Origin: Escherichia coli
GTDB lineage: Bacteria; Pseudomonadota; Gammaproteobacteria; Enterobacterales; Enterobacteriaceae
Length of the DNA stretch: 4,443 nt
Direction: 5' to 3' (one strand)
NCBI RefSeq assembly: GCF_003334765.1
Contig: NZ_QOWT01000067.1
Each line of letters opens with the position of its first letter. The first letter of the stretch is position 1. The translations under genes were made by a program, and so were the position numbers. Below the pieces are notes generated by a model that saw only the letters and a list, made by a program, of their open reading frames with translations, was not told the origin of the DNA and did no database searches. This document shows, piece by piece, positions 1,431-1,712 of the stretch.

Positions 1431-1664
1431 TTATTGCCTGAGAATTCCCTCACTGGCGAGATACGGATTTAGCTGTTTTCCGGCATCAGGTTCAAAATTC
1501 CAGCACCGCCAGCGTAGCTGCCCTTCAGCATTGCGAATAACCAACCGGGAATATGTTCCCTGGTCATCTTCAGTAAACACATTGCGGTAAGCTGTTTTGA
1601 CGGCAACAGCCTGTTCGCGTGAGAAAGGGCCTTCGGGCAATAAACGTGATGTACAACCCGGCAT
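1431..1664 (-). CDS. Small DUF905-like protein (YkfF-like), 77 aa from the preferred start; the track ORF extends to 1700 (89 aa)
   Basis: ORF track gives 1431..1700. The first ATG (1698-1700) sits inside the upstream terminator hairpin and has no Shine-Dalgarno. The second in-frame ATG (1662-1664) is preceded by GGGAG at about 8 nt and gives [77 protein letters not shown]. Size and the LPEGPF...WNFEPDAG pattern resemble the roughly 75-80-aa DUF905 island proteins; family assignment is from memory and moderately uncertain. Confidence 0.65.
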
Positions 1665-1684
1665 ATCTGTTGCTCCCTGAAAGT

Positions 1685-1712
1685 AAAAAGCCCCGGTCAT
1701 GATGACCGGGGC
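1685..1712 (-). terminator. Intrinsic terminator-like hairpin downstream of the Ag43 ORF
   Basis: 10-bp GC-rich stem gccccggtca (1690-1699) / tgaccggggc (1703-1712) with a 3-nt loop; on the minus strand it is followed directly by TTTTT (complement of aaaaa 1685-1689). It lies about 23 nt downstream of the Ag43 stop (1735-1737). Confidence 0.6.

Follow-up and report, generated by a model that had tools for sequence, protein, structure and literature searches.

In Escherichia coli, reverse transcription PCR (RT-PCR) places agn43, yeeR and irmA on one transcript, which spans a hairpin that lacks a run of T residues (T-run), and there is no evidence for cotranscription of irmA with the genes downstream of it (Moriel et al. 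2016, PMC4807369). Members of the DUF905 family in plasmid leading regions adjoin ssb and psiB. The subject of this analysis is a junction at which a DUF905 gene follows agn43, located in a stretch of 4,443 nucleotides (nt) from E. coli contig NZ_QOWT01000067.1 that is referred to here as the window. An earlier note on this DNA had observed that an 89-amino acid (aa) open reading frame (ORF) begins inside a GC-rich hairpin. It had proposed that either a second ATG is the true start, with the hairpin being simply the Ag43 terminator, or translation from the first ATG is gated by RNA structure. The explanation favored here, which sequence comparisons make very probable, combines a predicted terminator at 1714-1688 with a DUF905 start at 1664, to which read-through is added as the favored route of expression. 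Every relevant gene of the window is carried by the minus strand, and positions are given in the direction of transcription.

Structure of the hairpin and its flanks

The hairpin consists of a 5' arm AGGCCCCGGUCA (1714-1703), the loop UCA (1702-1700) and a 3' arm UGACCGGGGCUU (1699-1688). These form a stem of 12 base pairs (bp), eight of them G-C, which is closed by a 3-nt loop and is assigned the tail TTTACTTTCA by the terminator scan. The stem begins 21 nt past the agn43 TGA, leaving a 20-nt spacer. Folded alone, the hairpin has an energy of -22.6 kcal/mol compared with -7.4 +/- 2.1 kcal/mol in 200 dinucleotide shuffles (z = -7.4), none of which is as stable. The fold-energy check that had been suggested for this region thus places the hairpin far beyond its shuffled controls. 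The U-tract CUUUUUACUUUC at 1690-1679 comprises five consecutive U residues, then AC, then UUU. A stable GC-rich stem-loop, a U-rich tract directly 3' of it and an upstream stop codon on the same strand are the features of an intrinsic terminator, and all are found here. In itself, the number of terminator-like sites that the scan reports (five, versus 3.8 +/- 2.6 in shuffles) is not significant. Except for a strong site at 1409-1380, the remaining ones are minimal 5-bp stems.

The distances to the DUF905 gene are short. Only 1 nt separates the T-run from the Shine-Dalgarno (SD) sequence, the hairpin ends 10 nt before the SD sequence, and 23 nt lie between the hairpin and the start codon. The figure of about 20 nt given earlier for the distance to the ribosome binding site therefore fits the hairpin-to-start-codon distance, and not the spacing to the SD sequence itself. 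The upstream ATG (1700-1698) does sit where the earlier note had placed it, in the loop and stem ahead of the T-run. A1700 is the last loop base, the 3' arm opens with U1699 and G1698, and the triplet is part of the hairpin's conserved palindromic core (CCGGUCAUCAUGACCGG).

The second hairpin (1409-1380) has a folding energy of -23.1 kcal/mol (z = -7.7). It is found in other loci too, with CCGGGAG at the top of the stem in place of the CCAGAAG seen here. Because it lies between DUF905 and DUF932, DUF905 is bracketed by two terminators.

Other assignments for the local RNA structure were considered. An Rfam scan of the window at a permissive threshold returns only NsiR1, which falls on the hairpin with 21.4 bits versus a gathering score of 39 (E = 0.62). 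This identity is rejected because the score is at chance level and well under the gathering score. No RNA family match points to a riboswitch or attenuator leader for DUF905, and no systematic search for antiterminator structures was made. In a 101-nt fold, CUCCUU (1721-1716) pairs with the SD sequence AGGGAG. This anti-SD pairing is rejected as incidental, since its probability is only about 0.17 in a 136-nt context where other partners dominate, and a common U-to-C variant disrupts one of its pairs. It is neither robust nor conserved.

Conservation of the hairpin, T-run and SD sequence

Substitutions in the stem are compensatory. Among agn43-linked variants, a C-G pair is replaced by U-A, and a G-C pair changes through G-U to A-U. 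The K-12 hairpin (GGUCCCGGUCA...UGACCGGGACC) has U-A in place of C-G, the hairpin of locus L013 has the G-U intermediate, and that of strain EcN has the completed A-U pair. In the agn43-linked set, 98.9% of cells are paired, versus 19-55% when the partner columns are slid. The irmA-linked hairpin (GCCUCUGUCA-loop-UGGCAGAGGC) aligns with that of the window and differs from it at three stem pairs, each changed on both sides. For this comparison, 96.6% of cells are paired versus 28-51% with slid partner columns. Five stem positions are changed on both sides, in a small sample (8 + 9 variants) of related sequences.

The conserved region extends beyond the stem. CUUCAG stands before, and CUUUUUA..UCAGG(G)AG..ACAGAUAUG after, both the window hairpin and the irmA-linked one. 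The SD sequence is kept as CAGGGAG or CAGGAG across all hairpin-linked contexts, and a T-run accompanies every hairpin type that stands immediately ahead of DUF905 (A, B and C). The hairpin, T-run, SD sequence and ATG can be read as a single conserved 5' flank of DUF905, in which the hairpin (1714-1688) and T-run are predicted to constitute a conserved Rho-independent terminator. In 5426 complete E. coli genomes, this unit stands after agn43 in 2695 and after irmA in 2201, and in one locus it follows unrelated AT-rich DNA. To call the hairpin simply the Ag43 terminator is therefore incomplete. The unit is not confined to agn43, and K-12-type islands carry next to agn43 a copy that is without a T-run.

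In these K-12-type islands, yeeR is the next gene after the agn43-adjacent hairpin. The T-run-less copies are located at 870-905 of L005 (K-12), 1586-1610 of L013 and 5795-5819 of L051. The terminator scan flags the hairpin with its T-run before DUF905 and does not flag the T-run-less hairpin after agn43 in EcN. A hairpin without a T-run might be an RNA stabilizer, a processing stop or a junction left by insertion of yeeR-irmA. The conserved flank AACAGATATGYCRGGTT also has 37 matches in viral contigs, which were set aside as chance because none of these encodes DUF905 by tblastn.

The DUF905 start codon

The DUF905 protein is predicted to have 77 aa and to start at AUG 1664 with the GGGAG SD sequence at 1677-1673. 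The Prokaryotic Genome Annotation Pipeline (PGAP) places a 234-nt coding sequence at the equivalent base in NZ_CP172127.1 (WP_072650320.1, identical coordinates). The upstream ATG, which the earlier note had taken to be the annotated start, is thus used by a minority of public annotations (89 aa), and RefSeq already has the gene at 1664. PGAP chooses the same start downstream of irmA in EcN and SK1144. It does so also in a locus with neither hairpin nor agn43, where the ATG is 5 nt past the stop codon of an unrelated ORF. Contigs that encode exactly the 77-aa sequence number 328, and four encode exactly the 89-aa sequence.

The N-termini of homologues, whose comparison had been suggested as a check, agree that the 1664-equivalent start is the conserved one. 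In 56 of 120 close homologues, the initiating Met is 11 residues before the GPFS motif. Another 18 start 23 residues before it, and all of these begin with MTGAFY(F/L)QG(A/V)TD, which implies that they have the same nucleotides upstream. Other subtypes start with MSDCHPVLL, MRGCTLLLF or MPGYTEYVL and place their Met in the same alignment column. The 12 N-terminal residues of the longer form are therefore not a shared feature of the family and are confined to genes that have this nucleotide hairpin and T-run upstream. The starts of distant family representatives cluster around that of the 77-aa form (-3 to +4 residues), and a minority of these proteins have unrelated longer leaders.

Domain boundaries coincide with the shorter form. 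Positions 2-68 of the 70 in Pfam model PF06006 match residues 20-86 of the 89-aa form (E = 3.4e-27), which are residues 8-74 of the 77-aa form, making the protein a full-length member of the family. Alignment with K-12 YkfF (PDB 2HJJ) begins at residue 18 of the 89-aa form. Among the matches listed, homologues on at least 5000 mostly conjugative plasmids align from its residue 20-21. The 77-aa form, and not the 89-aa form, begins a few residues ahead of the LP-GPF-R-QA motif, as YkfF does. An NCBIfam scan of the 89-aa protein yields no family, and a search of genome contigs with patterns from the DUF905 alignment, which were too strict, recovers one locus only.

Insertions and deletions between the two ATGs are also informative. 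Within the 36-nt stretch that separates them, one A is added in the commonest irmA-linked allele (GAGAAAACAGATATG). The 77-aa gene is intact in this allele, and everything upstream of its start is put out of frame. Locus L012 has 35 nt between the ATGs (-1) and locus L008 has a 7-nt deletion, and both keep the downstream ATG. The 36 nt thus appear to be free of coding constraint, as judged by indels in other contexts because agn43-linked substitutions in this stretch are too few.

Initiation energetics separate the two codons in the same direction. With 20 upstream nt considered, the best anti-SD duplex is -7.4 kcal/mol for ATG 1664 versus -2.7 kcal/mol for ATG 1700, and opening positions -15 to +13 costs 10.7 kcal/mol versus 24.0 kcal/mol. 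These values bear out the earlier observations that the first ATG has no SD sequence and that the second has a well-spaced one, 8 nt before it. Homologues, PGAP, domain boundaries, indels and energetics agree on the 77-aa start, which the earlier note had offered as one of its two options. AUG 1700 is accordingly predicted not to be a start codon. The 89-aa product is best read as an artefact of callers that choose the longest ORF, which arises because this ATG happens to be in frame in the window allele.

Many genomes carry a DUF905 remnant that consists of the first ~40 nt of the gene, unrelated sequence and the last ~50 nt. Such remnants are found at L004 (1620-1800), L012 (1540-1720) and L052-L054, and none has a PGAP DUF905 annotation. 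Several are also mutated in the T-run or in the SD sequence (GGGAT, GGGAA), as would fit a unit that is decaying in its entirety. A separate irmA-linked allele (L009-L011, 1501-1776), present on ~200 contigs, has indels at the start (AAACCAGATATG plus an extra CA) that put the usual ATG out of frame. Databases hold a 91-aa product of this allele (MRCGRGYLSGETRY...), which uses a non-standard start codon and reads through the 3' arm of the hairpin. This product is probably a pseudogene or a mis-call.

Expression of DUF905

Most agn43 transcripts would end at the T-run. Since the space between the hairpin and the SD sequence is only 10 nt, any transcript that reaches DUF905 has crossed the hairpin. 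A consensus scan finds no sigma-70-like promoter anywhere in the window. Together, these two observations favor read-through of an imperfect terminator with an interrupted U-tract. DUF905, located between two terminators, would be transcribed mainly by polymerases reading through. In that case the gene would be expressed weakly and in dependence on the phase-variable agn43 promoter. Transcripts from this promoter are the favored route, with roughly an even chance of being the actual one. The alternatives are a weak, unrecognized promoter in the 3' end of agn43 or effective silence of the gene in laboratory conditions. The view that the T-run-bearing hairpin terminates and the T-run-less one does not fits the transcripts of the sister irmA arrangement (PMC4807369), which bear on the window only indirectly. 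No mapping of 3' ends or start sites at the agn43/DUF905 junction was found in the literature on DUF905, ykfF and agn43 termination.

Several points weigh against the combination of terminator, downstream start and read-through. The U-tract is interrupted (UUUUUACUUUC), which makes the strength of the terminator uncertain, and read-through is a route that we only infer. The transcript of the K-12 paralogue ykfF is not detected in laboratory conditions (PMC5389530). The K-12-type hairpin keeps its stem by compensatory changes though it has no T-run, and the stem may accordingly have a role beyond termination. Finally, the upstream ATG is in frame and free of intervening stops in the window allele and in most agn43-linked alleles, and the sequence of the window arrangement, taken alone, would be compatible with rare initiation at 1700. 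This last point, together with the public records that annotate 89 aa and the position of the agn43 stop just 34 nt upstream of ATG 1700, could be taken to mean that the 89-aa protein is real. Its translation would then be gated by melting of the hairpin, for example on read-through transcripts alone or through a ribosome that terminates at the agn43 stop. Such gating is extremely unlikely and was rejected on the evidence of annotation, homologues, domain boundaries, indels and energetics. The extension is missing from every DUF905 homologue that does not have this hairpin upstream and lies outside both the Pfam domain and the solved YkfF structure. Other alleles break its frame and keep the downstream ATG, and a start at 1700 would have no usable SD sequence and an opening cost of 24 kcal/mol. 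Moreover, the K-12-type hairpin has the same ATG with no DUF905 gene after it.

Other explanations concern the hairpin itself or the source of transcripts. The hairpin might serve mainly to stabilize RNA between cistrons or to stop its processing, or it might be a palindrome bound by protein or a junction at which island modules recombined, with the T-run being incidental. Copies without a T-run in K-12, L013 and EcN retain the stem through compensatory changes that include a G-U intermediate, which suggests selection on the stem even in the absence of termination. Transcription passes the T-run-less hairpin (PMC4807369), and the homology of island modules breaks exactly at the hairpin edges. 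A mainly non-terminating role is nevertheless unlikely for the window copy. The T-run is always there when a hairpin of type A, B or C directly precedes DUF905, the geometry is canonical for an intrinsic terminator, and no cotranscription is seen past the irmA-linked copy (PMC4807369). In addition, the two roles are not mutually exclusive. Very unlikely is a promoter of DUF905's own in the 3' end of agn43, with an mRNA start just upstream of or within the hairpin. By eye, a weak -10-like GATAAT (1736-1731) that is specific to the agn43-DUF905 arrangement overlaps the agn43 stop, with a poor -35 (3/6) and ~8/12 overall. The consensus scan scores no promoter-like site in the whole window, however, and the motif is missing in the irmA-linked and L012 contexts that share the same DUF905 5' unit. 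A transcript from GATAAT would begin ~10 nt before the hairpin and would still meet the terminator.

Terminator and read-through, as preferred here, could also be part of something more elaborate. It is conceivable, though quite unlikely, that the ~65-nt unit (CTTCAG, hairpin, T-run, SD sequence, 8 nt and ATG) does more than mark the end of a gene and acts as a conserved regulatory cassette, and that it operates by conditional read-through or antitermination together with the second terminator. Were this so, the array of DUF905, DUF932, antirestriction, RadC and CbeA/CbtA genes would be coupled to the phase-variable agn43 promoter, and island genes resembling those of plasmid leading regions would be expressed only in Ag43-ON cells.

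Other features of the window

The genes surrounding the junction were named after their counterparts in RefSeq record NZ_CP172127.1, which is 99.6% identical. Coordinates of all features are collected in Table 1.

Table 1. Features of the 4,443-nt window
Feature	Position	Strand	Basis
GTPase gene, 3' end	ends at 4193	minus	name from NZ_CP172127.1
Ag43/Cah-family autotransporter ORF, 762 aa, 5'-truncated allele	1735..4023; stop TGA 1737-1735	minus	ORF list; NZ_CP172127.1 annotation
Predicted terminator hairpin (stem-loop) at the agn43/DUF905 junction	1688..1714	minus	terminator scan, fold energy, compensatory changes
T-run CTTTTTACTTTC, predicted terminator U-tract	1679..1690	minus	sequence reading, terminator scan
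Predicted spurious ATG where the loop meets the 3' arm, first codon of the over-extended 89-aa ORF call	1698..1700	minus	ORF list, energetics, out of frame in other alleles
Shine-Dalgarno sequence GGGAG	1673..1677	minus	8 nt before ATG 1664-1662; anti-SD duplex -7.4 kcal/mol
DUF905 gene (UPF0401, YkfF-like), 77 aa	1431..1664; ATG 1664-1662, stop TAA 1433-1431	minus	PGAP, Pfam, homologues, PDB
Second strong hairpin resembling a terminator (13-bp stem, T-run), DUF905/DUF932 interval	1380..1409	minus	terminator scan, folding
DUF932 gene, 272 aa, next in island array	522..1340	minus	ORF list; DUF932 domain-containing protein in NZ_CP172127.1
Antirestriction gene, start	about 431 to window edge	minus	name from NZ_CP172127.1

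The agn43 allele of the window lacks 759 bp that are present in NZ_CP172127.1 (L001, 3065-3823), with a junction near 3976/3977 on the minus strand (3976-4023). Of the missing sequence, 155 nt belong to the leader and 604 nt to the very beginning of the agn43 coding sequence, signal peptide included. As a result, the 762-aa ORF starts at an ATG in the former leader, and the truncated Ag43 is probably the product of a non-secreted pseudogene. No single contiguous match to the deletion junction occurs in the collection's complete E. coli genomes. Three GATC sites are clustered within ~35 bp (4038-4072) just upstream of the truncated ORF, in an arrangement that resembles the Dam/OxyR phase-variation switch region of agn43. 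The promoter side of agn43 appears to have been kept despite the deletion downstream.

Significance and comparison with known systems

The practical consequence of these results is one of annotation hygiene. The 89-aa form persists in public databases, where it even represents its 90% cluster. Its 12 extra residues amount to translated terminator sequence. In biological terms, DUF905, whose family is common in the leading regions of plasmids, resides between two strong terminator-like hairpins, with no recognizable promoter, in roughly half of complete E. coli genomes. Expression of DUF905, antirestriction and toxin-antitoxin genes may consequently hinge on read-through from agn43 or irmA. What remains curious is that hairpin, T-run and SD sequence form a modular, covarying unit and that DUF905 is placed between two terminators.

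The over-extended reading frame is of a familiar kind, in which an in-frame ATG without an SD sequence falls in non-coding regulatory sequence and adds residues, here 12, that independent homologues do not share. The apparent conservation of the extension in agn43-linked copies is only that of the underlying nucleotides, which are kept as hairpin, T-run and SD sequence. The protein itself resembles other members of DUF905/UPF0401, such as K-12 YkfF (PDB 2HJJ) and the plasmid copies, in its 77-aa length and full-length PF06006 match, and it has the same type of neighborhood (DUF932, antirestriction, RadC, DUF987 and CbeA/CbtA). It differs from the plasmid copies in being ~59% identical to them or less and in following agn43 on the chromosome. 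On IncK2/Z plasmid pEC9682-2 (L057, 1410-1475), DUF905 comes directly after ssb, and a GC hairpin (GCCCCGC...GCGGGGC) without a T-run lies just before the SD sequence. The layout of a hairpin followed by an SD sequence may be general for the family.

The agn43-yeeR-irmA operon (PMC4807369) shares with the window the same agn43 3' end, a homologous hairpin and, further downstream, the same DUF905-DUF932 array. The window has neither yeeR nor irmA, and its hairpin is joined directly to the T-run, SD sequence and DUF905, a unit that stands after irmA in the operon. Compared with E. coli Rho-independent terminators, the window has the expected GC-rich 12-bp stem, 3-nt loop and adjoining U-rich tract, the whole beginning 21 nt past the stop codon of a long gene, and its stem is maintained by compensatory substitutions. 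It departs from them in that the U-tract is interrupted and ends 1 nt from the SD sequence of the next co-directional gene, and in that the homologous K-12-type copy without a U-tract lets transcription through. Nothing in these comparisons departs from known kinds of element, so the architecture of the junction, a canonical intrinsic terminator followed by a canonical SD-led start, is one that is already known.
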